A stretch of DNA of 64,000 nt from an uncultured Spirochaetia bacterium (GCA_964417645.1 CAYQIS010000001.1:104418-168417); one strand, 5' to 3'; shown: positions 9,104 through 48,016, numbered from the stretch's first letter. Numbers and translations: made by a program. Notes: generated from the sequence alone by a model not told the origin.

Positions 9104-9150
9104 GAAATAACCTCCGCAAATTTTTTGCATCATCCTTCCACTTCCGTGAA

Positions 9151-18781: not shown

Positions 18782-21700
18782 TTTATCAGGTACACCTTGC
18801 CTTTTTCTTCTTCTCCGCGCTCGGGTCTGATAATATAATAATACACTCCGGGGGCTGTTTTCTCCCCTGCTTTATTTCTTCCGTTCCATTCAACCCTGCC
18901 GGATACACCCTTTGCCTCAAACATTACAAAGCCCTCAATATTATATATCGTTACATCAGCAGGCGCAGGAAGCAGTATTTTTAAAGTGCCGCCGTGAGAC
19001 TTTTCCCTGTCATACGGGTTAGGATATACAAGAATCTGCTGAATGGGTGTCTGTGTTGGGGTTACGGTTGGTGATACAGTCCAAGTTTGTGTGATAGTCC
19101 AGGTTTGTGTAATTGTCCATGTCTGTGTTATCGTCCATGTTGGCGTTATAGTGGGAGTATTTGTCTGTGTTGATGTCTGTGTATTTGTACCGGTTGCCGT
19201 TGATGTTGGGGTGCCGGTTGCCGTGGGTGTTACCGTAGGCGTCCAAGTAACCGTAACAGTGGGCGTGGACGTACCCGTAACAGTTCGTGTAGCTGTCTGC
19301 GTGTTTGTTTCGGTTACGGTTGGCGTTGATGTTTTGGTTACAGTCTGAGTGACGGAATATGTGTAAGTAATTGTTATTGTAGGTGTTACGGTTGCCGTAT
19401 GCACGGGCGTTATTGTGTGTGTCTTGGTAATTGTATGCGTTTCTGTGATTGTGGGGGAATGCGTGTGCGTCTGGGTTATTGTAAAAGACATTGTTTGAGT
19501 GGCAGTGGGCGTTACAGTGCCTGTAACCGTTTCAGTTGCAGTCTGTGTTATTGTCTGTGTTGCAGTCTGTGTTATTGTCTGTGTTGCAGTTGAAGTGTTT
19601 GTTCTTGTGACAGTCTGGGTTATTGTTTCCGTGGCAGTCTTTGTTGCGGTGCGTGTTACGGTTTCTGTCACAGTCTGCGTGCTTGTCCTTGTCACTGTTT
19701 GTGTGTTTGTTTCGGTTGCGGTTTGTGTGCTTGTCCTTGTCACTGTCTCTGTTGCAGTCTGAGTTGCGGTTCTCGTTATGGTTCCCGTAACTGTTTCGGT
19801 TGCGGTCTGTGTTATTGTCCTGGTTGCCGTTGGTGTTGAAGTCTGTGTAATTGTACGCGTAACGGTTGCCGTTACTGTAGGTGTTGCCGTAAATGTGGGC
19901 GGGTCAATGACAAGTATCTGGTTGCTTGTTCCCGCCTTGCCCGAATCAAGCGTGTCTTTGGCGGTAATTGAAACCATGCCAAGGGTTCCAAATGTTATTC
20001 CCGTAAACTGTTTTACACCAAGATCTCCCGCTGTGAATGTATAATCCGCGGGAAGTGATGCAAGCGTATCATTTGATGTAAAGTGTATTGTGCCGGTATA
20101 ATTTGTGACAGTTTGATTATATGCATCTTTTGCCCTTACTATTATACTGTAAAGATTCTGATACGGTCCGTAAGAACGGTAAGCCGTTGACGGCGCGGTA
20201 ATTGAAAAACTTATTGAAGGCTGTGATGTTATCACTCCGGAATATCCAGTATCATCCGGGTTTGCCATTGTTGCCGTCACCACATGACCAAGCCCTGAAA
20301 CAATGGACATTAAAAGGTCTGTTGTGATTCTGCCGTTTGAATCTGTCACCCCGCTCTGCGGGTTAACAGAACCGTAATTTGTGCTGAAAGTAACGGGAAT
20401 ATTTGCAATCGCCTGAGGTATGCCGTCCTGATCCACAACATATGCCGTAATCCTTACATAAGAACCTGCAGGAGCTGATGTGGCTGACGGAGGAGACACC
20501 TTTATATAATAACCGGTGCTGATATTAAGAGTGTTTCCCGAAGCAGCAAGAACAGGCGATGCGCTTGTTTCCTGTATTCGCATTATATTCTGTCCAACAT
20601 AATGGGATTTAATATATACCACGGCCTGCCCGCTTGCATTAAGATTAAAGTTAAGGCTGTTTGACCAGCTGTTCATATCCGTCGAATAAAGCACATGCGC
20701 TGTTGCTGTTGCCGGGCTTACGGTATAAATGTTAAGCCCAAAATGGCCAGTTGTTGGCGGCACATTATATCCGGCAGCATCAACAGAACTTACGTTTAAT
20801 ATGCCTATCTTATCGGCTCCGATAGACATCGGGTTCGGAACCGCCTGTATCCTTGTTGCGGCGCTTGCCGATGATATTGTAATTGTTGTTCCAAGCAATC
20901 CGCTTGAATTTATGACACAGTAATTAAGGCTTCCGGTGGTTGAGGTGCTGGTTCTGTACCATGCCGTAATCTGCCCGTTCTCAAGGGTGTTTCCCGAAGT
21001 CGGCGTTACAAAACTTGGAGCTTTTCCTGATTGTACATAGGCCGCAAAAGTTACATCCTTGTTATTGACAGGGTTCCCGTAAAGGTCCGTTACCTTAGCT
21101 GTCAGTGTCACCCACTGCCCCGCCCCTACGGCATAAAGATTTGACCACGCGCTAAGATATGCGGGGGAATTTGCAATTGTAGTCGGATATGCCTTGCCGT
21201 CCGCAAGCACTGATGCATTATCATGAGCGGTTATTGTTACAAATTTTGCCATTACCGTATCTTTATAGTACAAATAAGAAGTCCCGCTTGCAAGAGTTGT
21301 ATTTATTGTTGTAAACCAGTTAATTCCATCCGTTGAAAAACGCATTGTTGGTGAAACTGAAGAGATATTTACACTTGCGTTCGAAGATGCGTCAACTGTG
21401 CCGTTCTTTGCCTGTACCCTGATTTGTACCGGCTCCCCTGCTTTCGCGGTGGGGGAAACAGGGGTAATTGCAAGAGATGTTGCCGGCATGTCCGCAACAT
21501 AAACCATTGCAGTGCCGGTAAGCAGAGTATAAGCGTATCCTTTTATCTGGGCATTAACCGCCTGACTGTCCTTTACAAGAATTGAATTTTGGATCGCACC
21601 GCTTAAAACAAGCGTTGGAGACCATGTTACACCGTTGTTTGAACTGAACAAACTTGTGGCCGAATCTGATGTAATCGTAATTCCGCGCGCATCGGACACA

Positions 21701-24700
21701 AAATTGCCGTTTATGTCTTCAAGACGCACAAGCAAAGTTCCCGGAACATTTGTCTGAACGCTTAAATCAGAAGGCGTAATCTTAACTCTGCTGGCAGCAA
21801 GAGGCGAAAAATTAATTGATATGCTCTTGCTCATATGGCTTAAATATGCGGTAATTTGAGAAGATCCCGAAGCCGTTGAACTTATCCTTGCATAAGCATA
21901 ACCTTTCCAGTCTGTTATTGCTTTGGAGTTTCCGCTTACAGTCAAAGGAATTACTGTATCCGAGCTTCTGTTTGAAACAAAATCAATAAGCGCACCATAA
22001 ACAGGGTTTCCGTCCGGCCTTATCACACGCGCGGCAACCGTAATGTTGCTGTAGCCGTCGGCTGGAACCGATGTTGAAGGATTAGCCGAAAGTATCATGT
22101 CTTTTAAAATGAAAATGTAGTCGTCCTGTTCAAGGGAGTTCCAGGAAGCGCCAAAAGTAACGCTGGAATAAGTCATCCCGTTAATCGGCATCACATTGTT
22201 ATCGCTGAATATATTAATTTTAACAATACCAGCGGAATCGGTAAATCTTAAATTGTCATAAATTGCATTAAATGTACCCCGCATATTTGAAGCGGCGCCG
22301 TTAAAGCCAAAGTTCCCGGTATCCTGAGACAGGAAGAATTCTCTTTCATACATGCCTCCAAGACGGCTCATATCAAAACGTCTCTTATACCATTTTCCTC
22401 TTGCATAAGCGCTTATATCCATTGAAGGGTGTATTCTTATTGCATTCTGGTCAATTATATACTGCTGTGTTGCCTGTCCAAAATCCCTGTAATTGTCAAC
22501 ATAAGGCGATGGTATTGTAGCTCCTCTTCTGTCATTTTCTATCGAACAATAAAAACTTGAACTGTAATTCGGTATGAAGACATCATATTCAAGATAATAG
22601 TTGTTCGGAATCTGATGCACGTACCTTGATACGGAAAGATATGTAAACATATAGGTGTTTGCCGTAGGAAGATATGAAGTAAGAAGCATTGGCTGGCTGT
22701 ACTGTCCGCCGGTTCCCGAAACAACAATGTTGTTGCTTGTTCCGTTCACTGCAGGGTTTACGGTGTCGGTTCCCACTATCGTATAAGTTCCGGAACTGTT
22801 AATTGTCGCGGAGAATATCCTGCTGCCGTAATCCGTGGATACAAAAGTATAATCTGGAGGCAGGCTTGCCGTTGCTCCCGTGGTAAAATGTATTGTACCC
22901 GTATAGTTTTCAACTATATTCTCATAAGCATCTTTTACCGTAACGACAAAATTAAAGCTTACTCCCATATTTGCGCTAAGCGGTGCGGTTATATCATAGT
23001 GATTGGGCGCTCCTGCAATAACATTTATGCCGTTACTGGTACCGTTAATCGAAGGCGTAACGATATCGCGCGCAGATATTGTCTGTATGCCTTTTGTGCG
23101 CAACTGAACGGGTAAAATTTTACTGCCGGCATCAGAAAGCGTAAAAACAGTATCCGACGGCAAAATCGCATTGGTATCAGTTGAAGTGAACCCCACTGTT
23201 CCGGTATATCCGGTTACAACATTATTATAAGCATCCTTCGCGGTAACCGTAATGAATATCGTCTGCCCTGCGGCTGCGGTTGCAGGCGCTTCAATTGTAA
23301 AACTTACCGCATTTCCTGTTGTAAGGTTAATATTTGCATTTCCCGGAGTCAGCACTCCGTCAGATGCGGTAATTGTCTTTAACCCGGTGTTGTTAATCTG
23401 AACCCTGAACCAGCTTACACCGCCCTCACTTCCGTCAAAAACATATGATGACGGGTCAAACCAATACGAGAGCGCGTTAGAAGTCATATTTACCGTGCCT
23501 GTATAAAGCGGATAAACAAAATCTCCGTAAGATATCGGGGCTTTTGCTCTTACAGTCACATAAAATGGCACGCCGGCTATCTGCTGGGGGGTTGCTATTA
23601 TTTCAAGATGATCCGCATACATTGTTGCGGTTGCAGTTGGGCTTGCGGTTGCGGTTGCTGTTCTTGTAACAGTTGGCGTCACTGTTTGGGTTACTGACGG
23701 CGTTGAAGTCGGTGTTGATGTCCTTGTTACAGTCGGGGTTACAGTTGATGTTACAGTGCCCGTTGCAGTGCGGGTAACCGTGGGCGTGTTTGTCGGCGTG
23801 TTTGTGGCTGTTACCGTTGGGGTTACGGTTCCTGTTGCCGTTCCTGTTGCCGTACGGGTGATTGTTGCAGTAACAGTTGCGGTTGCAGTATTGGTTATTG
23901 TTGCAGTAACAGTCGGGGTTGCAGTTCGCGTTGCGGTTAAGGTTATCGTGAAAGTTATAGTTGATGTTACTGTTTGTGTAACAGTACGGGTAACTGTCTG
24001 TGTTGCTGTCTGTGTATTAGTGGGCGTAACCGTGGATGTTACGGTCTGTGTAACTGTAGGTGTGATTGTCTGCGTGCTCGTAAGGGTTATTGTGCTGGTC
24101 TGTGTAACCGTTTGTGTTACTGTCTGTGTATTTGTAGCGGTTGACGTCCTTGTAACCGAAGGAGTTGCCGTCGGAGTTGATGTTTCAGTAACTGTTCTTG
24201 TTACAGTAGGGGTTGATGTTTCTGTTGCGGTCCTTGTTATCGTTGCAGTGACTGTTTCCGTATTTGTAAGTGTAATCGACGGGGTTATACTTGGAGTTGG
24301 TGTGTCCGTATGTGTTTGTGTAATCGTTGCGGTATTCGTAAAAGTGGGGGTTATCGAAAAAGTTGGTGTAATGGTATACGTCGGTGCGGGGTATTCCGTA
24401 TAATTAATTGTTATACTGTTTATAAACGGAGATACAAAATTGTCATAAGTCCGCAGCATTGCTTTCCAAAGTATATCCTGCCCTTTATCAGAAGGCCTTG
24501 AATCAAAATGAACGCCGATTCCCGGCGTCACCTGTATCCAAGTGGTTCCGTTATTGCTTGAAATATAATAAGCTATCTCCTGCCCGTTTAAAGTATCTGA
24601 CGCATTAAGTGTAATTGACATGTAGTTTGCAAACCAATGCGCAACAGACACGGACTGAAGCCATCCTGGCGAAGTGTACGCCGCTCCGTAAATATTCAAT

Positions 24701-26712
24701 TTTGCCCTTGCGCCGGCAATAACCCAGCTTTCACCGTTAAATGTCACGGTATTAATTTGTGATGCGCCAAAATTTTCAAGCTGAGAGGTCACGTCAGTTA
24801 TAATCGCTTCGCCGTCGGTTATACTGTATATTTTCCCCGAACCTCCCGCAACATACCATTTATCCAAATTATTGTCATAATCTATTCCGTATATGTTGTT
24901 TGCTCCCATACCCGAAAGAGTTATCTGATTCCATCCTGTCCAGTCAAAAAGAAAAAGTTTTCCGCTGTCACAGCCAACAAGTATTTTGGCAAAACCCGAA
25001 TCCTGCCCGTCCCATTCAACTACATTTATACCTGTTGTGCCTCCACCTGCATAAAAGTAATCATTTGACAAATCCTGAAATATTCCGCCGGACGGTGTAT
25101 AGCTTGCAACATTTCCGCCTGCGCCGCCTATTATCCATTTATTATTGGAATTTCCCCACCATGCAGCGGCCTTAACGGCAGCGCCGCTGTCCCAGCCTGA
25201 CGCAACAAGATCCGCGCTCCTGTCCGTATAATTATGCCCATTTGCGCTTGTTGCAATTTTATTGTTGTCTCCTCCCACAAGCCACTCGCTGCCGTTCCAT
25301 TTTATTACATTTACGGCATTTGTTCCAAAGCCAAGCTCCGTTGTCTTTGATGTAAAAGAAACGCCGTCATATGCGGCTATTTTCCCGCCCTGCCCGCCAA
25401 TCAGCCAGTATGTTCCATTCCAGGCAATCGCCAAAACTCTGGATGTGCCAAAACCAAGGCTTGTTTTAAGATCGGTAAAAGTGTTTGTTGCCTGATCGTA
25501 TTTGTTAAGGCAGCCGTCATCTCCTCCAAGCAGCCAGTAACTGCCGTTCCAGCCCGAACAGTTTATGGGCTGAAAACCAAAATCCTTTACATTATCGGTA
25601 AGTTCGTTGTTAACCGGCGAATCAACACCGCCGGTTCTGTTCATAAGTCTGGCATTTAATCCGCCTATAAAATTGTTTGTTCCGTCTGTTTCTATGGCGT
25701 AAATATTGTCATTTGAAAAGAAAGCAGGGTTGGTCTGCATATAGTATGTGTTAAGATCAGTGCTTGTATAAAGCCTTGTTGTTGATCCGTCCTGCCCGCC
25801 TATCATCCAATAGCTTCCGTTATGCCGTATAGAGTAAACCCAGGACAAATTTGAAAGCGAGCTGTAAGTGAAAGACGAGCCGTTATACTTCATTATCCTG
25901 GATGAACCTCCGCCTATTGCCCATGTACTCCCGTTCCATTCAAGCGCGTATATGTCAATTGCTCCGCCTGCGGCCGTCTGAAAATCAGAAGATAAATTTG
26001 TAAAAGTTGTGCCGTCATACCTTACAAGCCTTCCGCCCGTGCCCGCTATTAAAAAGTAACTGCCGTTCCACTTTATTGCCCTTATTGAATTTGTTCCAAA
26101 AGCCGAAGTAAAATTGGAATTGTTTATAAGAGACCAGGTTGTGCCGTCAAAACTGTTTAATTTGCCTCCCGCTCCGCCAATCAGCCAAAATTGTGTGGGG
26201 GTGTCTTTATACGCAATTGCATAAATATCAACACCGCCCCAGCCAACCAGATTTGATGTATAATCAATCCAAGTGCTGTCTCCGTTCCACCTTTTAAGCA
26301 CCCCGCCATATCCGCCCACAAGCCAATATGAACCGTTGCAGTAAGCGGCAAAAATGTCATTATCAAAACCGGCTTCCGAAGTCTTATTAATATAAACAGA
26401 ACCGTTATACCTGTTTATTTTTCCGTTTCTTCCGGCAATAAGCCAGTTTCCCGCGTTTTGATGAATTGTGTATATCGCTCCGCCCCAGTTCTGAACTCCT
26501 GTTGTTTCGGCGAACCTATTGCCACGAAGCAGTGCGCCGCGATGATTTGTGGTGTCCCAATTTGCGGTTGTATTTGAAGCGTCTTTATAAGTATTGTCAT
26601 TAAAATTTTCAGTATATGTTCCGGTTGCCGCAAAGGAATTTACAAATAATAAAAGTAAAAAAAAGAAAATCCACGCCCCACTGTAAATCTTTAAACGTAA
26701 ATGCCGCATCAT
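18778..26712 (-). CDS. giant secreted multidomain surface protein (2,644 aa): 14-blade propeller repeats, Big-like Ig domains, two TxT tracts, T9SS-type C-terminal sorting domain
   Basis: Signal peptide (MMRHLRLKIYSGAWIFFFLLLLFVNSFAATG). About 14 repeats of 45 aa with core W-N-G-S-x-W-L-I-G-G-x-G-G-K-I. Big_1/Big_2-like motifs (AKDAYNNVVTGYTGTVGFTS; ADGYSNITVAARVIRPDGNPVYGALIDF). Tracts with Thr at every second position at aa 777-1030 and 2272-2556. The C-terminal 88 aa (YPNPYDREKSHGGTLKILLPAPADVTIYNIEGFVMFEAKG…WNGRNKAGEKTAPGVYYYII…KVYLIK) match Por_Secre_tail / FlgD-Ig-like consensus. Own RBS (GGAG) and a TATAAT-like box upstream. Confidence 0.85.
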   Translation of the reverse strand: MMRHLRLKIYSGAWIFFFLLLLFVNSFAATGTYTENFNDNTYKDASNTTANWDTTNHRGALLRGNRFAETTGVQNWGGAIYTIHQNAGNWLIAGRNGKINRYNGSVYINKTSEAGFDNDIFAAYCNGSYWLVGGYGGVLKRWNGDSTWIDYTSNLVGWGGVDIYAIAYKDTPTQFWLIGGAGGKLNSFDGTTWSLINNSNFTSAFGTNSIRAIKWNGSYFLIAGTGGRLVRYDGTTFTNLSSDFQTAAGGAIDIYALEWNGSTWAIGGGSSRIMKYNGSSFTYSSLSNLSWVYSIRHNGSYWMIGGQDGSTTRLYTSTDLNTYYMQTNPAFFSNDNIYAIETDGTNNFIGGLNARLMNRTGGVDSPVNNELTDNVKDFGFQPINCSGWNGSYWLLGGDDGCLNKYDQATNTFTDLKTSLGFGTSRVLAIAWNGTYWLIGGQGGKIAAYDGVSFTSKTTELGFGTNAVNVIKWNGSEWLVGGDNNKIATSANGHNYTDRSADLVASGWDSGAAVKAAAWWGNSNNKWIIGGAGGNVASYTPSGGIFQDLSNDYFYAGGGTTGINVVEWDGQDSGFAKILVGCDSGKLFLFDWTGWNQITLSGMGANNIYGIDYDNNLDKWYVAGGSGKIYSITDGEAIITDVTSQLENFGASQINTVTFNGESWVIAGARAKLNIYGAAYTSPGWLQSVSVAHWFANYMSITLNASDTLNGQEIAYYISSNNGTTWIQVTPGIGVHFDSRPSDKGQDILWKAMLRTYDNFVSPFINSITINYTEYPAPTYTITPTFSITPTFTNTATITQTHTDTPTPSITPSITLTNTETVTATITRTATETSTPTVTRTVTETSTPTATPSVTRTSTATNTQTVTQTVTQTSTITLTSTQTITPTVTQTVTSTVTPTNTQTATQTVTRTVTQTVTSTITFTITLTATRTATPTVTATITNTATATVTATITRTATGTATGTVTPTVTATNTPTNTPTVTRTATGTVTSTVTPTVTRTSTPTSTPSVTQTVTPTVTRTATATASPTATATMYADHLEIIATPQQIAGVPFYVTVRAKAPISYGDFVYPLYTGTVNMTSNALSYWFDPSSYVFDGSEGGVSWFRVQINNTGLKTITASDGVLTPGNANINLTTGNAVSFTIEAPATAAAGQTIFITVTAKDAYNNVVTGYTGTVGFTSTDTNAILPSDTVFTLSDAGSKILPVQLRTKGIQTISARDIVTPSINGTSNGINVIAGAPNHYDITAPLSANMGVSFNFVVTVKDAYENIVENYTGTIHFTTGATASLPPDYTFVSTDYGSRIFSATINSSGTYTIVGTDTVNPAVNGTSNNIVVSGTGGQYSQPMLLTSYLPTANTYMFTYLSVSRYVHQIPNNYYLEYDVFIPNYSSSFYCSIENDRRGATIPSPYVDNYRDFGQATQQYIIDQNAIRIHPSMDISAYARGKWYKRRFDMSRLGGMYEREFFLSQDTGNFGFNGAASNMRGTFNAIYDNLRFTDSAGIVKINIFSDNNVMPINGMTYSSVTFGASWNSLEQDDYIFILKDMILSANPSTSVPADGYSNITVAARVIRPDGNPVYGALIDFVSNRSSDTVIPLTVSGNSKAITDWKGYAYARISSTASGSSQITAYLSHMSKSISINFSPLAASRVKITPSDLSVQTNVPGTLLVRLEDINGNFVSDARGITITSDSATSLFSSNNGVTWSPTLVLSGAIQNSILVKDSQAVNAQIKGYAYTLLTGTAMVYVADMPATSLAITPVSPTAKAGEPVQIRVQAKNGTVDASSNASVNISSVSPTMRFSTDGINWFTTINTTLASGTSYLYYKDTVMAKFVTITAHDNASVLADGKAYPTTIANSPAYLSAWSNLYAVGAGQWVTLTAKVTDLYGNPVNNKDVTFAAYVQSGKAPSFVTPTSGNTLENGQITAWYRTSTSTTGSLNYCVINSSGLLGTTITISSASAATRIQAVPNPMSIGADKIGILNVSSVDAAGYNVPPTTGHFGLNIYTVSPATATAHVLYSTDMNSWSNSLNFNLNASGQAVVYIKSHYVGQNIMRIQETSASPVLAASGNTLNISTGYYIKVSPPSATSAPAGSYVRITAYVVDQDGIPQAIANIPVTFSTNYGSVNPQSGVTDSNGRITTDLLMSIVSGLGHVVTATMANPDDTGYSGVITSQPSISFSITAPSTAYRSYGPYQNLYSIIVRAKDAYNQTVTNYTGTIHFTSNDTLASLPADYTFTAGDLGVKQFTGITFGTLGMVSITAKDTLDSGKAGTSNQILVIDPPTFTATPTVTATVTRTITQTSTPTATRTITQTATETVTGTITRTATQTATETVTRTSTQTATETNTQTVTRTSTQTVTETVTRTATKTATETITQTVTRTNTSTATQTITQTATQTITQTATETVTGTVTPTATQTMSFTITQTHTHSPTITETHTITKTHTITPVHTATVTPTITITYTYSVTQTVTKTSTPTVTETNTQTATRTVTGTSTPTVTVTWTPTVTPTATGTPTSTATGTNTQTSTQTNTPTITPTWTITQTWTITQTWTITQTWTVSPTVTPTQTPIQQILVYPNPYDREKSHGGTLKILLPAPADVTIYNIEGFVMFEAKGVSGRVEWNGRNKAGEKTAPGVYYYIIRPERGEEEKGKVYLIK
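18781..19044 (-). other. T9SS-type C-terminal sorting domain (CTD) of the giant protein
   Basis: YPNP…hydrophobic strand…IYNIEG…WNG.N..G…GVYYY…K…L.K matches the type-A T9SS CTD (TIGR04183-like) pattern. Confidence 0.6.
19045..19899 (-). repeat. coding low-complexity tract: about 285 codons of alternating Thr (T-x-T-x), ending in WTITQT x4
   Basis: Translation of the minus strand gives PTFTATPTVTATVTRTITQTSTPTATRT…WTITQTWTITQTWTITQTWTVSPTVTPTQTP. On the plus strand it shows as a periodic GT-rich (gtN) run. The V-x-V shadow ORFs 19043..19348, 19499..19762 and 19778..20044 are artefacts of this. Confidence 0.85.
23623..24385 (-). repeat. coding low-complexity tract: about 254 codons of alternating Thr (T-x-T-x)
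   Basis: PTYTITPTFSITPTFTNTATITQTHTDTPTPSITPSITLTNTETVTATITRTATETSTPTVT…ATATASPTATAT. The plus-strand shadow ORF 23756..24403 (V-x-V) is an artefact of this. Confidence 0.85.
24640..26500 (-). repeat. about 14 tandem protein-level repeats of 45 aa (beta-propeller blades) in the giant protein N-terminus
   Basis: Recurrent units such as IYAIAWNGSYWLIGGQGGKIAAYDGVSFTS, AIKWNGSYFLIAGTGGRLVRYDGTTFTN and CSGWNGSYWLLGGDDGCLNKYD. 14 units is consistent with two 7-bladed propellers. Confidence 0.6.
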
Positions 26713-34994: not shown

Positions 34995-36029
34995 TTATTG
35001 CCCGTATCCGTCCCTGTTTTTTATTGCAGTTTTTCCTGTAATTTTCACTCGGATAAACTCATATGAATATATGAAAAAAGTAGCAAGACAAACCGGAATA
35101 TGCCAAATCCAAAAAATTCCAGGTTTGCGAAAAAAACCAACAAAAGTCTGAAATATTAAAGGCAGAACTGTTATACAAGAAACAACGAACATCAAAATGC
35201 CTTTTAAAGGAAATTTTTTCCAAGGATATTTTCTATGTCCATACGAACTAAAATACATAAAATCTTTAACACGTCGATCCTGTTTTTTAAGAAACAATCT
35301 GAATTCAGGAGAATAAATATGTATTATTCCTATATTAACTTTTGCAAACTTCTTTAAACCCTTCTCCATCATTTGATATACTGCATCTATATCAAAAAGA
35401 TAAGGAGAATATGATGTTGCTTTCAAAATATCGGCTCTCAAAAAAGTTCCATTTGCCCCTATTGTCGGCATTCTATTTTTTTCTAATTCAATCAATATGT
35501 ATCCTTCCATTTGCTTAGTCTTAAGTTTCATCCCTGTCCATTTCCCCGTAATATAACTATATCTGTCATAATTTCCTATAAAAAGGCACAAAGGATCATT
35601 GATTCCGGCACATGCAAAATATTTTGTAAGACTTTTATTTTTTTCGTTATATGTAAAATATATTGGCTCACTTCCTAAAATTTCCGGTTCTTCAAGAAAA
35701 GGCAATACCATTTTACTTATAAAAGAAGTTTCCGGCATTATGTTGTCGCTATCTATGAATGCAAGTAATTCTCCAACAGAAATCTTTACAGCCTCGGCCT
35801 TTCCTGCTTCACCGGTTTGAAGCGGATTTGAAATTATTCTTATTTTCAATTTATCCATAAAACTCTTTATAATCTGAATTGTTCTGTCTTTTGAACCTGC
35901 GTCCGCAATGACCACTTCAAAAAGCTCTTTAGGATAATCTTGCAGGCATATTGCCTCTAAGCATTGACCTATAACACTCTCTGAATTATAAACAGGCGTA
36001 ATAATAGAAACAAAAGGTAATTTTTTCAT
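34995..36029 (-). CDS. family-2 glycosyltransferase (GT-A fold)
   Basis: N-terminus …PFVSIITPVYNSESVIGQCLEAICLQDYPKELFEVVIADAGSKDRT… plus a DxD-like motif (…AFIDSDN…). 344 aa with a C-terminal hydrophobic segment. Confidence 0.6.
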   Translation of the reverse strand: MKKLPFVSIITPVYNSESVIGQCLEAICLQDYPKELFEVVIADAGSKDRTIQIIKSFMDKLKIRIISNPLQTGEAGKAEAVKISVGELLAFIDSDNIMPETSFISKMVLPFLEEPEILGSEPIYFTYNEKNKSLTKYFACAGINDPLCLFIGNYDRYSYITGKWTGMKLKTKQMEGYILIELEKNRMPTIGANGTFLRADILKATSYSPYLFDIDAVYQMMEKGLKKFAKVNIGIIHIYSPEFRLFLKKQDRRVKDFMYFSSYGHRKYPWKKFPLKGILMFVVSCITVLPLIFQTFVGFFRKPGIFWIWHIPVCLATFFIYSYEFIRVKITGKTAIKNRDGYGQ

Positions 36030-37474
36030 TTCCTAATCTTCATAAAATCAAGAATATGCCCCGTAACCGCTTTACCCGCCTTAAACAAGAAACTTAAATC
36101 TTCAAAAGACCTTATTGAAAAAAGCTGGCGCAGCATAAAACGCGGCGTCATGAAAGCTCTGTATATACTGTTACACATGGCTACAACTTCTTCATCTGTC
36201 ATGTCCGGTGTTTTAAATACGGGTTCTGTCATATCAAATTTTTCCCATTCACCCGGTTTTATCTTCAGCCAGCCATTTTGAACCGCCTGATCGTAAAGCG
36301 GTGTTCCCGGATATGCCGTAACAACAGTTGCCTGAAGCATATCGGCAAGCCCTTTATCAAGAAGCTTTCTGGCAAGATCAAGGGTCCGCTGAGCGTCTGC
36401 CTTTGTTTCCCAAGGATATCCCACCATTACGGTTAAATGCACTCCAAGTCCGGCGTCTTTTGCCGTTCTGCAACCCTTCTCTATATCTTCGACCTTTGTC
36501 CCCTTGCACAGCCTGTCCAACGTTTCCTGATTTGCAGACTCAAGACCGAATTTCATAAGTCTAAAACCCGCTTTTTTCATAAGAGGCGCTATTGAAGGAT
36601 TTATATAATCAAACCTGAAATTACACATCAAAGAAATCTTATAGTCTCTTTGTATCATTCCTTCACAAAATTTTTTAAGCCATTCTCCCCTGGGAAATGT
36701 TCCTGTGTCATCAAATATTTCCCTTATTCCGTATCTCCTTACAAGCATATCTATCTCGGAAAGCAGACTTTCCGGGCTTCTTGTGCGAAACTTTGGAAAC
36801 AAACCTGTCCATGCACAAAAAGTACATTTGCCCCAAGGGCAGTCGCGTCCTACCATTGTATATGTATAAGGCGCATATTTAAAAAATTTTTCCCCGTATA
36901 ATTTCCACTTTGTGAGATCGCGGTCTATAAACGGAAGCGAATTTAAATCATATTTAAGCTCAAATCTGCCGGTATCCTTTATGGTTCCATTATCCCTGTA
37001 CCACGTACCCGGTTCAAGAGCCGCTTTACCGTTTAAGTTTTCCGCCACGCCAAGAAGCATAAAATCAAAATCTCCGCCTGTTATAACATAATCAAATGTT
37101 GAGTTCTGCATTGTTTCCAAAGGAAAAGCCGTTACATGATCTCCCATAATAACTGTTTTTACATTTGGCAGTATTTCCTTTATTTTGGCTTCTATCCGCC
37201 ATATCTGCCTTACAACAGGAGTCTTTGTTTCAATGGCTATAAGATCCGGCTTTTCCTCAATCAAAAGCTTCTCATAACTTTCCCAATTCATGAACTCCGC
37301 AATGGAGTCATTATAAATTACATCATAACCTTTGTTTTTAAGCAAAGTGGCGGCAGAAGCCGGCACCATCGGATAAATAAAAGAAGGATTATGAAACCAC
37401 TGAAACTGCCTGTTCTGCCCAAGAGTCGGAGTTCCTTTGCCTTTAAGCGGCGGGTATGATATCATTACCTTCAT
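36026..37474 (-). CDS. B12-binding-domain radical SAM protein
   Basis: N-terminal Rossmann-like cobalamin-binding region (…KPDLIAIETKTPVV…VIMGDHVTA…), then a radical-SAM core with a cysteine triad reading GRDCPWGKCTFCAW (C-x4-C-x2-C spacing as translated). 482 aa. 4-nt overlaps with both neighbouring genes. Confidence 0.7.
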   Translation of the reverse strand: MKVMISYPPLKGKGTPTLGQNRQFQWFHNPSFIYPMVPASAATLLKNKGYDVIYNDSIAEFMNWESYEKLLIEEKPDLIAIETKTPVVRQIWRIEAKIKEILPNVKTVIMGDHVTAFPLETMQNSTFDYVITGGDFDFMLLGVAENLNGKAALEPGTWYRDNGTIKDTGRFELKYDLNSLPFIDRDLTKWKLYGEKFFKYAPYTYTMVGRDCPWGKCTFCAWTGLFPKFRTRSPESLLSEIDMLVRRYGIREIFDDTGTFPRGEWLKKFCEGMIQRDYKISLMCNFRFDYINPSIAPLMKKAGFRLMKFGLESANQETLDRLCKGTKVEDIEKGCRTAKDAGLGVHLTVMVGYPWETKADAQRTLDLARKLLDKGLADMLQATVVTAYPGTPLYDQAVQNGWLKIKPGEWEKFDMTEPVFKTPDMTDEEVVAMCNSIYRAFMTPRFMLRQLFSIRSFEDLSFLFKAGKAVTGHILDFMKIRK

Positions 37475-38454
37475 CTTTTTTCCTCTTCTTTTAGCCTGCC
37501 TTTTAAAAGCCCGGCAATGAAATATGTCCCATAAACAATATGATTTATAAATATTCCAGGAATCAAAAGCATTGCCCTTACAAAAGATCTCAGTTTTATG
37601 GCGTCAATCAAAATAAGTATAGCATACAAAAGCAAAGGCAAAGACCACCAAAGAATATATTGTTTTAACCATATAAAAACAGGTATAAAACTCAAAAGAT
37701 AAAGCAAAAACATTGTTGGAATAAAATACGCAGGTCTAAGAGATGTTTCCGGAAACTTTTTTACAAAGTATCCCCTGTGAAGCGCGTAACTTTTTACCTG
37801 TTTTATATGGCCAAAAGGAAAATCCCGCCTGTGATGGTATACAAATACATCAGGGTCATAAGCAATCTTCATTTTGTGGTCCCTTGTTATTTTAAGACAA
37901 ATCACCGTGTCCTCACCCGGCCAGAATTCCGTGTTAAAACCTCCTATTTTATCCAATACATCTCGCCTTATAAGAAGGTTGCAGGAAGGATAATCGTCCA
38001 CAAAACGCGCGTGTTCCGGAATATAACGGTAGCGGTAGCTTCCTCCGCCCATAAAAGAGGCGTAAATATCTCCGCTAACCTTTTTTAACAGAGAATCATT
38101 TTTCGGAGTAACTGCCGGGCCGCCAACAGCCGCTATATCTTCCGAACTTTCAAATATTTCAACAGCCTTTTTAAGCCATTGGGATTCAGGAAAAACATCA
38201 TCGTCTATGAATGCCACTATCTCGCCTTTACTCAGATTTATGCCCCTGTCGCGCTTTTCCCCCGGATATATGTGAGTGGTCGGGACAATTTTAAGGTCAA
38301 AACTGAATTTTTCTTCAATTTTCTCGTCATTATCAGGCAGCACTATTACCTCAATTTTGGACTTATCGTAATCCAATGCATCTATATAAGGAAGCGACTC
38401 CCTTATGTAATCATTTATCTCTTTAACAGGTATTATAATGCTTACTGTTTTCAT
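37471..38454 (-). CDS. family-2 glycosyltransferase with C-terminal TM helices
   Basis: …VSIIIPVKEINDYIRESLPYIDALDY… and …VAFIDDDVFP… (DxD). C-terminal roughly 90 aa has 2-3 TM helices. 327 aa. Confidence 0.7.
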   Translation of the reverse strand: MKTVSIIIPVKEINDYIRESLPYIDALDYDKSKIEVIVLPDNDEKIEEKFSFDLKIVPTTHIYPGEKRDRGINLSKGEIVAFIDDDVFPESQWLKKAVEIFESSEDIAAVGGPAVTPKNDSLLKKVSGDIYASFMGGGSYRYRYIPEHARFVDDYPSCNLLIRRDVLDKIGGFNTEFWPGEDTVICLKITRDHKMKIAYDPDVFVYHHRRDFPFGHIKQVKSYALHRGYFVKKFPETSLRPAYFIPTMFLLYLLSFIPVFIWLKQYILWWSLPLLLYAILILIDAIKLRSFVRAMLLIPGIFINHIVYGTYFIAGLLKGRLKEEEKR

Positions 38455-42468: not shown

Positions 42469-44397
42469 TTACTGTTCCCAATATTTTTCAAGGTCTTTTC
42501 TTACATATACAACAAAATCATACGAACCCAATTCATTCCACACATCCCTGTACATAAACCTTTTCCACAGCATATCAATCTGAGTGGCTCTGTCTGCGTC
42601 CCACCACTTGCCTTCATCAGGCGCCCACCACTCCCTAAGCTTATATCTGTAATAAACATAGTCCTTTTCCAATTTTTTTCTGACACGCTCATCATGCCCC
42701 ACATTGGCCTCTTCAATACCGGAAAAAATGAGAGGCTTTCCTATATCAGAATCAGGAATATCCCTTGGAGGATATCCTATTTTTTTGAATTCCCTGAAAT
42801 ACCACGCAAAAGGCCACGAACAATAATCTTCAATGGTCATCTCCATATCATACATATCGTAGCTTCTGAAAGCCGCGCTGTCCCATTTAAGAGTTTTTAA
42901 TCTAAATGCCAATTTTTCCGTGCTTCTTACAACTTTGGTTGCATCTGTTGATGTCTGAACATAAATAAGCGATTCTTTCGGCGAAGCGCCTTCGCCGTAA
43001 AAACAAACATTAACCGCTCCGTGAATCATACCAAGAGAAAGCACAATAAAAATTGCCATGCTTATGTCCTTCACTATTCCCTTAATGCCTTCACCGGTTG
43101 AGACAAATATATCGGAAAGAAATTTTGCCGAAAGCATAAGCAAAGGAAGCAGCGGATGAAGAACAAGCCATGGCATCTTTTCTCCGGCCCACGAATAAAT
43201 AATTGTAGCCATAATCCACCAGTATATAAGGAAAAGATTATAATGGGTTCTTTTCCCGGGCATCAGCAGATAATAAAAAGTTGCCAGCAAACCAAAGAAA
43301 ACAGGCACAAGTTCATAGAAAGGCATCAGAAGTATGTAAAAGTACCATGGCTGACTTCCGCGTTCCACCCCGTGCTGTCCAAGCCAGTATACTATGGCTT
43401 CAATGTATCCGTCTTTTACATATTTAAGATTCTGCCAAAATGTATTTCCCGGTTCCTTTCCAAAATAAAGATACCCGTGTATCAGAACAAATACAAGTAA
43501 AGCATAAACAAAGTGTTTCCATCCTTCCCCAAACCAAAACTTAAGCGTGCGGTGAACATCTCCTTCTCTTTCAAATTTTTCAGGTTCGGATTTTTCTATA
43601 ACCCATTCCCAGAGCCACCTTAAAGAAAAGAAAGTAAAGAAGATAAAAACTGTAATATATGTCACTTCTTTGGTCGCCCAAGAAAGCGCAAGCCCGACAG
43701 ACGCCAGAATAAGCCAGCTCAATTTTTTATTTTCAAAATATTTAAACAGCCCAAGTACAACAAAAAGGGTGTCAAGCGCAATGTATATATCGTTTCTTAT
43801 AAATCTTGACTGATACATAAAAGAAGGCGAAATAGCAAGAAGGAACGCGGCAATCAATGCTCCCCAGCGCCCCATATAAGGCCTGAAATACCACATAATC
43901 CATACGCATGCCGTTCCATAAATTGCAGGCAATACCCTTGCCGTATAATCAGTGGTTCCAAAAAGGAAATAAATTAACGCATTGGAATGGAACAGAAATG
44001 GACCGTGAAGCATAGGATTATAAAGATATCCCTGGCCTTTAAACAATTTCCAGGCATAAAAGGCATGCATTGATTCATCATGATGCAGGGGCTTTGTACC
44101 GAGATCCGCAAACCTGCTTATTATGGTCAATATCATTATCGTAATCCATGCCATCATTTCCCAATCAATTACAATGCCCTGCCCCGGCTGATAATTTACC
44201 GGACCTTGTATTTGTTCAGTTATCTTCTCTTCTTTAATTTTTGGCTGTTTTTCCTGCTTTACAGTCTCTTTTTTTACAACAGGCGCAGACTGCTGAGCAG
44301 AAGGTGCCGCCGCCAATTTTGCCCCGCAGCTGTCGCAGAACTTATTGGATTTCGGATTATCCGAACCGCACTTTGCGCACTTGATATTATCTGCCAT
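42469..44397 (-). CDS. N-terminal zinc-ribbon fused to a large GT-C-like polytopic membrane protein (PMT_2/ArnT-like; TIGR03663-like)
   Basis: Opens with CAKCGSDNPKSNKFCDSCGAKL (Cys4 ribbon), a Gln/Lys-rich linker, then about 12 TM helices. The first periplasmic loop reads …TKPLHHDESMHAFYAW…, a DE-type motif as in GT-C glycosyltransferases. 642 aa. Confidence 0.5.
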   Translation of the reverse strand: MADNIKCAKCGSDNPKSNKFCDSCGAKLAAAPSAQQSAPVVKKETVKQEKQPKIKEEKITEQIQGPVNYQPGQGIVIDWEMMAWITIMILTIISRFADLGTKPLHHDESMHAFYAWKLFKGQGYLYNPMLHGPFLFHSNALIYFLFGTTDYTARVLPAIYGTACVWIMWYFRPYMGRWGALIAAFLLAISPSFMYQSRFIRNDIYIALDTLFVVLGLFKYFENKKLSWLILASVGLALSWATKEVTYITVFIFFTFFSLRWLWEWVIEKSEPEKFEREGDVHRTLKFWFGEGWKHFVYALLVFVLIHGYLYFGKEPGNTFWQNLKYVKDGYIEAIVYWLGQHGVERGSQPWYFYILLMPFYELVPVFFGLLATFYYLLMPGKRTHYNLFLIYWWIMATIIYSWAGEKMPWLVLHPLLPLLMLSAKFLSDIFVSTGEGIKGIVKDISMAIFIVLSLGMIHGAVNVCFYGEGASPKESLIYVQTSTDATKVVRSTEKLAFRLKTLKWDSAAFRSYDMYDMEMTIEDYCSWPFAWYFREFKKIGYPPRDIPDSDIGKPLIFSGIEEANVGHDERVRKKLEKDYVYYRYKLREWWAPDEGKWWDADRATQIDMLWKRFMYRDVWNELGSYDFVVYVRKDLEKYWEQ

Positions 44398-44418
44398 TAT
44401 ATCCTCCTTAAAAAGGTT

Positions 44419-46827
44419 TTACTTTTTTTTGTATATTGTCACATCGCCTTTTGCATATACAACATCCATAAATTCCGCAAATTTTAAAAAATTCGCTTGA
44501 GGATATTTAATTCTTTCAAGCGGACCCACATAAACATATGTCACTCCGTATTGTTCAATCAATGCCTTTGCTTCCATTATGTTTGATGTATTATATATTG
44601 TGTCCACAACACCCTGTCTGCGTGCCGCTTCATCGCCCGTACCTCTCCATTGATATTCATGTCCGGGCCAGCCAATAACCGTCGGAAGCCCCGTAAAAGA
44701 AGTTATCCTTGCATAATCCGTATATTCTCCGCCCCATGCCTCAAGTATTACAGGATATCCCTTTACATTTTGATTAAGCCAATGTATTGCATCATAATCG
44801 TATGCGGCCGGCGCTTTACCCTCATAAACCCTGTTTCGAAGAAAATCAGAGCCGTCAAGCGTAAAGGAACTTCCATACTGGGTTTTTGTGATAAAAGCAT
44901 TTACGGTATAAAATAATCCGAGTATCATAAGGATAACCGCAACAGAAATCCATGTTATTTCAGCCCACAACGGTTTGTTTCGCAGGTAAAAAGTCCTTGT
45001 CCAGAAAAACCCGTATGCAGCGGCAATCGAAAGCATTATCCATGCCTGATAATAAAACTTAAATACCGTATTCATCCTTTCAAGTGGTTCGTGAGTTCCG
45101 GGTCTTGAAAAAGAATCAATTATATGAAATATATCGCAAACCCAAATCATAAGAAAAGCCGTAAATATAATAATAATTACAAACTGATTTTCTTTATGCT
45201 CGGATTTTGTGATGCCCATTACGGCAATATATGCAAGCGCCAAAAACATAAACGCGCCGAACAAACCTGTTCCCTTTCCGTCAAAAAGTGTCTTAAACAA
45301 AAACAGCGCTGTAGCCGCAACCAAAACCGCGGAAATAAAAAATATTAATTTTCGGTCTTTTATCAGCCCCGGATTGGAAATAAATTTAAAAAAAGATACG
45401 CTAAATGTATTCGATTTCTTAAGATTTATTTCTTCGCCCCCAAGCTTTAATTCCGCGCCTGATACCAGATAACCGCAGTTTCCGCAAATCACTTTTCCTT
45501 CCCTAATTTCTTTTCCGCATTTGGGACATATTTCTTTTACCTTTTTGATCTTAGCCGAAGACCCTAGTGCACCTGTCCAATTCAAAGTTCTTGTGATTAT
45601 AAAAGAAACGACCGGATAAAGAAGTATTCCAAAAATCACAAGGAAATCCGTTATTCTTGTGTTTGCCTTTACAAGTCCTATGCCCTTTGCCTGCGAACCG
45701 AAAAAAAGCGTAAAAGGCAGATACATAACAACCGCAACAGCAAGTATAAATGTGACAGCCAGGGCAAAATCAACAAGCCATTCATTAAATTTCTCAAATC
45801 TTGAATATTTATATGCGGCAATACAAAGAACCGTTACAAAAAAGTACGTGGGAAGATCCCAGCTGTTTAAAAACCAAAGACCCCCAAGCAGAAGTCCGGC
45901 AAAAAAAATCCTGATAATTTTATACGGATTTGCTTCAACAAGATTGTCCTCATCCGTTTTAAGAAACACAAATGCCGTATTTAACGCAAGAAGCACAAAA
46001 GGTATGGCCATTTGATGCGGATGAAGGTCCCCAAGAAGAAAAGAAAAATACGGGAACTCATTTATTGTAACATCATAACCGGGATGGTCTATTATTCTGC
46101 TGCTTGTCCACCAATTTAACTGGTCAGGAGGGACCCCTTTTAAAAACTGCAAAAAGCCGTCAATGTTTCCGATAATTAATAAGAATGCTATTCCTAAAAA
46201 CCCGGTAAAATATCTTTTTGTAAGATTATAAAGAATTCCAAATATTCCTGTGGCGGCAAGCGCAACAGTATAAGACAAAGCAAGGTTATATCCTATCGTA
46301 TTCATAACGCCGGTCAGTTTAAACATTATTGCCATCATAAGATATCCAAAATAATAATAACTTATATAAAGCCCTTCGCCATACATCCAAGGGTCATAAG
46401 GAGGCATTTTATCAGCCCTGGAAATCGAATTCATAAATGCAAAATCCATAAATTTTTCCGTTCCAACGATATCAGGCTGATACATCCTGAATCTTGCATA
46501 AATTACAAAAGCCGCAATGAAAATTATTTCCGCCATAAATATGAAAATTATATTGTTGGCAAAGAAATCCGATATCTCATCTTTATTTTTAACATAAGCC
46601 CATGCAGAAAGCGCCGATATTATCAGCATAACAATTATTACCGTAACAGTTGAAAAATGTATAAAACCCAGCAGCCATGAAAAATAAGATATCAAAAATA
46701 TTCCGGTTATCTTGGAAAAAATATAGCCCTTATCGTTGCTTTTTCTGAACAAAATAAAATTAACAGGAAAAGCAATTAAACCCAGTAAAACCGCAACAAA
46801 CCACCACTTTATGATGTCAATTCCCAA
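44419..46827 (-). CDS. DUF2298 / Chlor_Arch_YYY-family giant polytopic membrane protein with internal zinc ribbon
   Basis: 802 aa, more than 16 TM helices. …MPPYDPWMYGEGLYISYYYFGYLMM… carries the YYY motif of that family. An internal CPKCGKEIREGKVICGNCGYLV Cys4 ribbon. The C-terminal roughly 200 aa is soluble. Confidence 0.5.
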   Translation of the reverse strand: MGIDIIKWWFVAVLLGLIAFPVNFILFRKSNDKGYIFSKITGIFLISYFSWLLGFIHFSTVTVIIVMLIISALSAWAYVKNKDEISDFFANNIIFIFMAEIIFIAAFVIYARFRMYQPDIVGTEKFMDFAFMNSISRADKMPPYDPWMYGEGLYISYYYFGYLMMAIMFKLTGVMNTIGYNLALSYTVALAATGIFGILYNLTKRYFTGFLGIAFLLIIGNIDGFLQFLKGVPPDQLNWWTSSRIIDHPGYDVTINEFPYFSFLLGDLHPHQMAIPFVLLALNTAFVFLKTDEDNLVEANPYKIIRIFFAGLLLGGLWFLNSWDLPTYFFVTVLCIAAYKYSRFEKFNEWLVDFALAVTFILAVAVVMYLPFTLFFGSQAKGIGLVKANTRITDFLVIFGILLYPVVSFIITRTLNWTGALGSSAKIKKVKEICPKCGKEIREGKVICGNCGYLVSGAELKLGGEEINLKKSNTFSVSFFKFISNPGLIKDRKLIFFISAVLVAATALFLFKTLFDGKGTGLFGAFMFLALAYIAVMGITKSEHKENQFVIIIIFTAFLMIWVCDIFHIIDSFSRPGTHEPLERMNTVFKFYYQAWIMLSIAAAYGFFWTRTFYLRNKPLWAEITWISVAVILMILGLFYTVNAFITKTQYGSSFTLDGSDFLRNRVYEGKAPAAYDYDAIHWLNQNVKGYPVILEAWGGEYTDYARITSFTGLPTVIGWPGHEYQWRGTGDEAARRQGVVDTIYNTSNIMEAKALIEQYGVTYVYVGPLERIKYPQANFLKFAEFMDVVYAKGDVTIYKKK

Positions 46828-47044: not shown

Positions 47045-48016
47045 ATGGCTTATAACAAAACAACATTCATTATTAAACTGCTTTTTACAGGTTTAATGCT
47101 TGCAATATTTACGGCTTTATTTACTTTCAAGTTTGTGTCATCTTTCGGCACAATCAATATGCCTGATTTAACCGGAATGGACCAGGAAAAAGCAAAAGCC
47201 GTATGCGCCAAACTTAAAATAGAATTTAAAATCAGCGATACTGTATACAGCTCCATTTACGAATCGGGAAAGGTAATAAATCAATCAATAAAACCAAAAA
47301 TGCCCATTAAAAAAGGAAGAACCGTATATGTTACCGTCAGCAAAGGCTCAAAAATGGTTGTTGTGCCGGATATAAGAGGAACCCTTAAATCCAAAGCACT
47401 CTTAACCCTTAAAAACGCCGATTTAAGCTATGGGACCGAATGTTCCGTAAAATCTCAAATTTATCCCGAAAATGTAATAATAAGTCAGTGGCCCGCTCCC
47501 GGAACCGAAGTCCCTTTTGATTATCCGATTAATACGGTAAGAAGTATTGGCCGCGGCACTGATAATTATATAATGCCTGACTGGAAAGGCGCATCGGTTA
47601 ACGATATATATAAATCCTTAAGAAAAACCGGTCTTTATATAAGTAAATTGGAAGTAAAAAACGACCCTAATCTTGCATCAGGAACTGTAATTTCACAATC
47701 TCCTTCTCCCGGATATATTGTAAACAAGGATATTCCGATTATTCTTACGGTAAGCAAAATAGACACAGACCAAACTTTAAAGAAAAGATTAATCAGGATT
47801 ACTTATGCGGTTACTTCTCCGGATAATGTCCCAAAACTTGTAAAAATAAACCTTTTAAGCCTGAACGGAAGCGAGACAGTTTACAACAAAATGACATCTC
47901 CTTCGGAAAAGATCGATATAATGGCAGGTGTCAGGGGCGATGCTTACGCCCAAATTTTTGTAAACGGCATTCTGGAATCCGAACAGGAATATAAGAATTC
48001 CGTTTCGCGGGAATAA
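47045..48016 (+). CDS. membrane-anchored protein with three PASTA domains, no kinase or PBP domain
   Basis: N-terminal TM helix, then three units beginning …MPDLTGMDQEKAKAVCAKL…, …VPDIRGTLKSKALLTLKNADL…, …MPDWKGASVNDIYKSLRKTGL… (PASTA signature: x-P-D-h-x-G, beta3-alpha). A C-terminal domain of about 90 aa of unknown type. Confidence 0.6.
   Translation: MAYNKTTFIIKLLFTGLMLAIFTALFTFKFVSSFGTINMPDLTGMDQEKAKAVCAKLKIEFKISDTVYSSIYESGKVINQSIKPKMPIKKGRTVYVTVSKGSKMVVVPDIRGTLKSKALLTLKNADLSYGTECSVKSQIYPENVIISQWPAPGTEVPFDYPINTVRSIGRGTDNYIMPDWKGASVNDIYKSLRKTGLYISKLEVKNDPNLASGTVISQSPSPGYIVNKDIPIILTVSKIDTDQTLKKRLIRITYAVTSPDNVPKLVKINLLSLNGSETVYNKMTSPSEKIDIMAGVRGDAYAQIFVNGILESEQEYKNSVSRE

Follow-up and report, generated by a model that had tools for sequence, protein, structure and literature searches.

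The window analysed here is a 64,000-nucleotide stretch of DNA from an uncultured Spirochaetia bacterium (GCA_964417645.1 CAYQIS010000001.1:104418-168417), with positions counted from its first letter. Two adjacent genes on its minus strand were found to encode large membrane proteins, an 802-aa member of the TIGR03662/DUF2298 family (referred to as the YYY protein) and a 642-aa member of the TIGR03663 family (referred to as the Agl23-like protein). Both possess the membrane fold of the C-type glycosyltransferases (GT-C) and each carries a single four-cysteine (C4) zinc ribbon. What is new here is the occurrence of paired ribbons, predicted to be cytoplasmic and specific to one clade, on two known GT-C families within a conserved glycosylation module. 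The identity, fold, topology and evolutionary pattern of the pair were assigned with high confidence.

Family, fold and topology of the two proteins

The YYY protein matched TIGR03662 ('chlor_Arch_YYY') over residues 4–801 with 533.8 bits (cutoff 300.25) and PF10060/DUF2298 with E=4.5e-105 (352.8 bits vs 27.8). The motif YYYxG (Y157, Y158, Y159 and G161) was invariant in 66 aligned YYY homologues of this large family, which comprises 5,513 clusters (50 % identity, E<=1e-10). The Agl23-like protein scored 288 bits with TIGR03663 (cutoff 126.25; residues 83–539) and also matched PMT and PMT_2. Its motif HHDE (H105-H106-D107-E108) was invariant in 56 aligned Agl23-like homologues, as were H131, G132, P133, R198 and R201, and the two alignments contained further invariant acidic, histidine and arginine positions; the features that describe TIGR03663, namely an invariant DE dipeptide, an HGP tripeptide and two arginines near the N-terminus, are all present.

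Models of the two proteins were obtained with AlphaFold2 (AF2) from alignments of homologues. Their predicted local distance difference test (pLDDT) and predicted template modelling (pTM) scores were 89.9 and 0.93, respectively, for the YYY protein and 89.1 and 0.86 for the Agl23-like protein, and both models had the GT-C membrane fold. A Foldseek search with the Agl23-like model returned STT3, AglB, PglB, Pmt4, ArnT and ALG9 (prob 1.0), and the sequence profile of this protein matched ArnT (5ezm) directly with E=6e-8. No Pfam match to STT3 (PF02516) was found for the YYY protein and searches of the PDB with its profile or single sequence were empty; neither the whole protein nor its C-terminal domain had a sequence-level match to solved structures, the links being given by fold comparison alone. 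That comparison showed the modelled YYY protein to be built like the catalytic subunit of an oligosaccharyltransferase (OST), with an STT3/AglB-like transmembrane (TM) core of the GT-C type and an AglB-like periplasmic globular domain at the C-terminus. Assignment of the YYY protein as an OST was nevertheless ruled out by the missing WWDYG motif and the missing sequence homology; neither WW[DE] nor WWDYG occurs in the 802-aa protein, which possesses the invariant sequence GWPGHEYQWRG at residues 719–729 in its stead.

Topology was derived from the AF2 helices together with the lysine plus arginine (K+R) count of each loop averaged over the family, simple calling of TM helices by hydropathy being judged too crude. 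For the YYY protein the sole consistent model had 16 predicted TM helices with both termini outside. The short loops predicted to be outer contained ~0 K+R and the short inner loops 0.8–2.3, compared with 11–15 in the loop that carries the ribbon (residues 423–491), the count for the 802-aa protein itself being 11. E124/K125/D145/YYY, E257/D267/H269/H271, D324, D571/R584 and the C-terminal domain were all predicted to be periplasmic in this model, which fits GT-C logic; the invariant residues E124 and D145 are the acidic residues looked for in the first extracytoplasmic loop of a GT-C protein. The Agl23-like protein was predicted to have ~11 TM helices, with the N-terminus inside and the C-terminus outside. 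As in PMT and ArnT, this places HHDE in the first outer loop and the C-terminal domain in the periplasm.

An earlier note on this DNA, generated by a model from the sequence, had described the two adjacent proteins, and their positions and the ribbon sequences that it quoted were confirmed. It had also assigned them as TIGR03662-like and TIGR03663-like and had allowed that the YYY and DE motifs might be chance matches, a possibility with which scores above the cutoffs and invariant motifs do not agree. Its account of the 642-aa protein was correct as to the N-terminal ribbon and the Q/K-rich linker; its 12 TM helices were reduced to ~11 by the AF2 model and the K+R counts.

The periplasmic C-terminal domain of the Agl23-like protein (42472–43002) contains an invariant WWxPD motif (W589-W590). 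This motif and GWxGHExQWRG of the YYY protein are Trp-rich and sited where OSTs have WWDYG, and could be acceptor-binding motifs.

The paired zinc ribbons and their distribution

The two ribbons share the spacing C-x2-C-x10-C-x2-C. The profile Zn_Ribbon_1 (PF13240) was matched with 26.7 bits by the 802-aa protein (gathering threshold 25) and with 24.8 bits, 0.2 below the threshold, by the 642-aa protein; PF13240 is precomputed on nearly all ribbon-bearing homologues of the latter. In the AF2 models the ribbons form β-hairpin strands (pLDDT 73–88), and a C4 motif arose by chance in 1/20,000 and 2/20,000 composition-preserving shuffles of the two proteins. The start M-x-[DE]-x-x-K-C is kept in dozens of Agl23-like homologues, indicating that the N-terminal ribbon is no start-codon artefact. 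The positive-inside rule, the GT-C orientation and homology all predict both ribbons to be cytoplasmic, in line with what had been supposed at the outset.

The ribbons differ in placement. That of the Agl23-like protein is carried on a long disordered tether (~45 residues, pLDDT <50 over residues 32–64, 12 K+R) and that of the YYY protein on short linkers within a K/R-rich loop. Mean column conservation in the ribbon clade was higher in the ribbons than over the whole proteins (0.66 vs 0.59 for YYY and 0.69 vs 0.60 for Agl23-like), and the linkers flanking the ribbons were weakly conserved (0.43–0.45). The YYY and Agl23-like proteins are the sole membrane proteins with a C4 motif among the ~60 genes of the window. 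Ribbons as a general habit of membrane proteins in this genome were ruled out, since the only other real C4 ORF (open reading frame) in the window is one of 154 aa (4879–5343, minus strand); its ribbon is N-terminal, and we take it to be NrdR-like.

A ribbon at the same position was present in 57 of the 120 YYY homologues listed and absent from the remaining 63. The top 50 homologues, down to 39 % identity, all possessed CPxCGxx[IF]REGKxICGxC with its position unchanged; a second group (~35 % identity) had CVxCGRExxGKKFCGxC, and a few more divergent YYY proteins also had a C4 insert there. Among the 120 best Agl23-like homologues, 69 carried CxKCGxxNPxxNxFC[DE]xC starting from residue 3–10. 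The ribbons had been called unusual in the earlier note, which holds for DUF2298 overall, as only 8/150 of the nearest representatives of 50 %-identity YYY clusters had a C4 insert. It does not hold within the clade, of which the ribbon is a fixed trait, and N-terminal PF13240 ribbons on bacterial membrane proteins have a precedent (PMC3355149).

The pair was then surveyed in 136 loci from genomes, metagenomes and exact-match contigs, with a locus counted where both genes were complete enough. Both proteins carried the ribbon in 20 loci, plus the window and locus L013, neither protein carried it in 35 loci, and not a single locus had it on one protein only. This strict co-occurrence is the outcome of the comparison of homologous pairs that had been proposed in the earlier note. 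Its view of the two families as a conserved pair was likewise borne out, a TIGR03663-type gene being located <=10 kb from the YYY gene in 55 surveyed loci with sufficient flank. The ribbon loci span a range of sequence types, with identities to the YYY protein of the window from 80 % down to ~32 %, and include metagenome-assembled genomes labelled Goldbacteria and FCPU426.

Neighbour-joining trees indicated one gain for each ribbon, in the same deep clade (Goldbacteria/FCPU426-like). The pattern is therefore not one of many independent correlated events; it is most readily explained by a single joint acquisition, after which purifying selection kept both ribbons over a long time. The sole loss of a ribbon in the YYY clade was found in P0051 (L081:946-3348), which has a decayed CSRC...GKCG with one Cys gone and whose contig ends before the partner gene. 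As a test of co-loss P0051 was uninformative, the partner gene being beyond the contig end. Two apparent losses among the Agl23-like proteins (P0194 and P0229) were rejected, as their start codons had been miscalled and the ribbon was found in-frame upstream (L088:1000-1122 and L089:2277-2423). Late start calls of this kind could hide ribbons in database surveys.

These data bear on the possibility that the ribbons are merely structural, i.e. partnerless zinc knuckles that rigidify a loop or the N-terminus or aid insertion and topogenesis, with co-occurrence reflecting phylogenetic inertia. With one gain per ribbon the co-occurrence is one event, the conserved non-Cys positions resemble what we take to be generic fold determinants, and in P0051 the body of the enzyme is intact beside the decayed ribbon. 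However, with one decay as the only exception, all four Cys are kept in both ribbons down to ~32–36 % identity (>55 YYY and ~75 Agl23-like sequences). A disordered tether of 45 aa leaves its ribbon unable to rigidify anything, and it is difficult to see why neighbouring partner genes should each have acquired a ribbon independently at one node of the tree unless the ribbons share a function. We consider a purely structural role quite unlikely.

The glycosylation module and a possible docking role of the ribbons

The YYY and Agl23-like genes are at the head of a nine-gene operon (minus strand, 46827->34995; Table 1), which is tightly packed, with gaps of <=24 bp or overlapping genes. The gap between the two genes themselves is 21 bp and both starts are preceded by a strong Shine–Dalgarno sequence (AAGGAGG 5' of the ATG of the 642-aa gene and GGAGG 5' of the TTG of the 802-aa gene). 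The presence of three GT2 (glycosyltransferase family 2) genes, a Wzx-like flippase and a B12-binding radical SAM (S-adenosylmethionine) protein in this one operon agrees with the clear glycosylation context that had been ascribed to the locus. The best explanation of the operon is that it encodes an envelope glycosylation machine which uses a lipid-linked sugar donor.

Table 1. Positions of the two GT-C protein genes, of features within them and of the remaining operon genes in the window
Feature	Position	Strand	Basis or remarks
802-aa YYY protein gene (TIGR03662 / DUF2298)	44419..46827	-	Family profiles, ORF call
YYY motif, Y157-Y159	46351..46359	-	Predicted periplasmic loop 117-175, alongside invariant E124, K125 and D145
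Predicted cytoplasmic K/R-rich loop of YYY, residues 423-491	45355..45561	-	Contains the ribbon and an amphipathic helix (474-484)
C4 zinc ribbon of YYY, CPKCGKEIREGKVICGNCGYLV, residues 434-455	45463..45528	-	
Predicted periplasmic C-terminal globular domain of YYY, residues 651-802	44422..44877	-	AglB/STT3-like, invariant GWxGHExQWRG (719-729)
642-aa Agl23-like protein gene (TIGR03663; PMT/PMT_2)	42469..44397	-	Family profiles, ORF call, AF2, Foldseek
N-terminal C4 zinc ribbon of Agl23-like protein, CAKCGSDNPKSNKFCDSCGAKL, residues 7-28	44314..44379	-	
Q/K/P-rich disordered tether of Agl23-like protein, predicted cytoplasmic, ribbon to TM1, residues 29-78	44164..44313	-	Poorly conserved
HHDE motif, residues 105-108	44074..44085	-	Predicted first periplasmic loop, position of the GT-C catalytic acid
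NHL beta-propeller protein 1, 322 aa	41476..42444	-	N-terminal membrane anchor, periplasmic propeller
NHL beta-propeller protein 2, 343 aa	40432..41463	-	Lys-rich cytoplasmic tail, membrane anchor, periplasmic propeller
Wzx-like (Polysacc_synt) flippase, 415 aa	39182..40429	-	Profile match
243-aa GT2, apparently without a TM segment	38454..39185	-	Sub-threshold profile matches
Distal operon genes: membrane GT2 (327 aa), B12-binding radical SAM (482 aa), membrane GT2 (344 aa)	34995..38454	-	

Gene order (YYY, Agl23-like, NHL, NHL) was the same in all ribbon loci with enough flank. These loci encode two free, membrane-anchored NHL propellers, whereas in the non-ribbon (Chloroflexi) loci the NHL domain is often fused to the Agl23-like protein. 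Such fusions, in which NHL follows the periplasmic domain at the C-terminus, were found in Chloroflexi, in 59/163 Agl23-like proteins (for example P0184, P0210 and L002:17049-20120), and never with a ribbon. In the manner of a Rosetta stone, the fusions argue for a partnership in the periplasm between the free NHL proteins and the Agl23-like GT-C protein. The propellers most plausibly bind the acceptor, as MIR or CBM domains do in other GT-C enzymes.

The conserved module thus consists of YYY, Agl23-like and NHL proteins, to which the ribbon clade adds a GT2 resembling undecaprenyl-phosphate-sugar synthases and a Wzx-like flippase. The 243-aa GT2 was present in 15/15 ribbon loci and 2/35 non-ribbon loci, and the Wzx-like flippase in 11/15 and 0/35, respectively. 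The best matches of the 243-aa GT2, all below equivalog cutoffs, were to ArnC, PgfS, AglJ, the haloarchaeal dolichyl phosphate (Dol-P)-hexose transferase and PpgS, and its sequence resembles that of a polyprenyl-phosphate-sugar synthase. The longer ArnC, AglJ and PgfS profiles were matched over the N-terminal two-thirds or so only; the unmatched regions are presumably the site of the TM helices in these three enzymes.

The B12-binding radical SAM gene (36026–37474, minus strand), which has sub-threshold similarity to HpnJ/BchE, lies between GT2 genes and has the same position in 7/15 ribbon loci, an arrangement that points to some unusual modification of the sugar or of the lipid carrier. A small, low-scoring PMT_2 paralogue was often found between the YYY gene and the gene for the Agl23-like/NHL fusion. 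In many loci the single-domain YYY gene is directly preceded by a gene for a giant YYY paralogue of 1,500–2,700 aa (for example L002:1466-6238, L003:4355-10597 and L070:6020-13468; the representatives P0242–P0248 are also of this kind). For the longest of these giants the family match is split into several stretches, an indication of more than one YYY unit.

The following scheme would account for the module. On the inner face of the membrane, the 243-aa GT2 would charge polyprenyl phosphate with a sugar, the loaded lipid would be translocated by the Wzx-like protein and/or the Agl23-like protein, and the YYY protein, possibly together with the Agl23-like protein, would carry out periplasmic transfer to an acceptor held by the two NHL propellers. 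The subunits of this machine would be held together in the cytoplasm by the ribbons, acting as protein–protein docking modules. One possibility is that the tethered ribbon extends to the loop ribbon and the two clasp each other, giving a YYY/Agl23-like heterodimer comparable to Pmt1–Pmt2 and EmbA–EmbB. Alternatively, they may recruit the short GT2 to the GT-C pair in a way analogous to DPM1, which lacks TM helices and needs a membrane tether. A docking or assembly role is put forward here as a tentative proposal; the combined statement, in which this role is added to the identity, fold, topology and evolution of the pair, appears to us evenly poised.

Several points weigh against this reading. 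Its main weakness is that docking is deduced from comparative signals with one shared phylogenetic origin; the perfect co-occurrence amounts to one evolutionary event and the long co-retention that followed, rather than to many independent replicates. The association with GT2 and Wzx genes is confounded by the same phylogeny, and the non-ribbon loci may have these genes elsewhere in the genome. Ribbons of the PF13240 type sit on many unrelated bacterial membrane proteins without a known role, and the conserved non-Cys residues (NP..FC and GK.IC), which we assume to be generic fold determinants of this ribbon type, are not proof of a specific interface. In addition, the YYY protein has no OST motif WWDYG, and the Agl23-like protein could be a flippase, a transferase or both.

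The partner of the ribbons could also be a host factor encoded outside the operon, such as SecYEG or the ribosome, the divisome or elongasome, or a regulator, for which each ribbon would be an independent cytoplasmic adaptor. Both GT-C enzymes would be positioned or gated by this factor; glycosylation might, for instance, be tied to acceptor secretion, as it is in eukaryotes through the association of OST with Sec61, and OST–translocon structures among the fold matches show that the principle exists. Two ribbons that are predicted to be cytoplasmic, conserved, co-gained and co-retained would suit this explanation as well, the long disordered tether of the Agl23-like protein is suited to catching a soluble partner, and none of the other conserved neighbours in the surveyed loci was found to have a C4 motif with which it might serve as a dedicated ribbon partner. 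On the other hand, the match to S27ae was weak (E=0.0018) and reflects generic ribbon similarity only, no candidate partner emerged, and the locus contains no Sec or division genes besides an unrelated ffh on the other strand. An adaptor role towards a host factor is in our view unlikely.

A bolder extension of the docking scheme is that the YYY protein is the catalytic subunit of a widespread, previously unrecognized bacterial OST-like glycosylating machine that includes the Agl23-like and NHL proteins and is coupled by the ribbons to cytoplasmic donor synthesis in Goldbacteria/FCPU426. Such a machine may glycosylate proteins or polymers, en bloc or with single sugars. If real, it would provide a bacterial counterpart of the tethering of TM-less DPM1 and the first cytoplasmic zinc modules that organize GT-C enzymes. 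This is a speculation to which we give a low probability. For both families, the module, the OST-like architecture of the YYY protein and the NHL fusion lead to hypotheses that can be tested, and the paired ribbons give experimental access to the coupling of cytoplasmic donor synthesis, flipping and periplasmic transfer in GT-C pathways.

Comparison with known systems and other features of the window

In the library of literature searched, there was no functional work on DUF2298, PF10060 or TIGR03662 and nothing that links GT-C enzymes to zinc ribbons. For TIGR03663, named 'flippase activity-associated protein Agl23' in NCBIfam, the earlier note's statement that no function had been assigned is outdated. 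In liposomes, purified Agl23 of Haloarcula hispanica flips Man5GlcNAc2-PP-dolichol, and the protein also rescues yeast rft1-delta (PMC11182771); it had previously been proposed as a hexose-P-dolichol flippase, according to the citation of Lu et al. 2020 in the same paper, and on its likeness to other proteins that paper says only that it is dissimilar to Rft1. This is the one characterized member of the partner family.

The 642-aa protein resembles H. hispanica Agl23 in its TIGR03663 score, its DE, HGP and Arg residues and its context of lipid-linked glycosylation, and the GT2 in its operon that is similar to Dol-P- or undecaprenyl-phosphate-hexose synthases recalls the Agl22/Agl23 combination. 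It differs in being bacterial (Goldbacteria-like), in its N-terminal cytoplasmic ribbon and tether, and in the presence of a separate Wzx-like flippase, which makes a pure flippase role less necessary. Its modelled fold and intact HHDE are also those of a GT-C transferase. This combination of fold and catalytic-type motifs leaves open whether members of the Agl23 family are flippases, transferases or both, a question on which the paired ribbons also bear.

The YYY protein differs from STT3, AglB and PglB (GT-C, GT66) in having no sequence similarity to them, 16 predicted TM helices, the loop with the YYY motif, and GWxGHExQWRG rather than WWDYG. The catalytic subunits of OSTs have 13 TM helices, and we know of no cytoplasmic zinc ribbon in OSTs. 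With Pmt1–Pmt2 and EmbA–EmbB, GT-C heterodimers that were among the structural matches (6p25/6p2r and 7bvc, respectively), the locus has in common two related GT-C proteins that occur together, and extracytoplasmic, acceptor-binding MIR or CBM domains for which NHL, free or fused, would be the equivalent. To our knowledge, TM and lumenal contacts hold those heterodimers together and cytoplasmic zinc modules are absent from them. For the YYY and Agl23-like proteins, heterodimer formation is a proposal. The GtrA/GtrB/GtrC and ArnC/ArnE-F/ArnT systems likewise combine a GT2 polyprenyl-phosphate-sugar synthase, a flippase and a periplasmic GT-C protein in one operon; the present locus is distinguished from them by two GT-C proteins, two NHL propellers, a short GT2, extra GT2s, the B12-binding radical SAM protein and the zinc ribbons.

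Membrane proteins with PF13240/DZR ribbons (e.g. those with YARHG) have a similar order of a cytoplasmic C4 ribbon, a TM segment and an extracytoplasmic domain. Those of the YARHG type are single-pass proteins with paired ribbons, unlike the single ribbons found here on two polytopic enzymes, one of them in an internal loop. For N-terminal PF13240/DZR ribbons on single-pass proteins, roles in signalling or as membrane-tethered transcription factors have been hypothesized (PMC3355149). By extension, the ribbons of the YYY and Agl23-like proteins could be zinc or redox sensors, or membrane-tethered nucleic-acid-binding modules, that tune activity or expression. That zinc ribbons often bind nucleic acids, and that both ribbons and their flanks are K/R-rich, would be compatible with such a role. 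However, a lone 22-residue ribbon in a loop of a 16-TM enzyme, without a further DNA-binding domain, is unlikely to be a transcription factor, the surveyed loci revealed neither a conserved DNA target nor a release protease, and the published hypothesis is itself untested. A regulatory or sensory role is thus considered improbable.

Outside the operon, a membrane protein with three PASTA repeats and no kinase domain is encoded divergently from it (47045–48016, plus strand); neighbours encoding PASTA and ribulose-phosphate-epimerase proteins also flank the module in locus L107. A GC-rich island (0.43–0.45 vs ~0.38 elsewhere) in which the sign of the GC skew flips contains a 2644-aa ORF (18778–26712, minus strand), which matched nothing in NCBIfam and has an N-terminus resembling a signal sequence; it could encode a giant surface protein and possible target of glycosylation. 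Two further ORFs on the minus strand (7651–8073 and 8672–9133) have N-termini similar to those of type IV pilins (GFTLVELMIVV and GITLMELLIVV, respectively).

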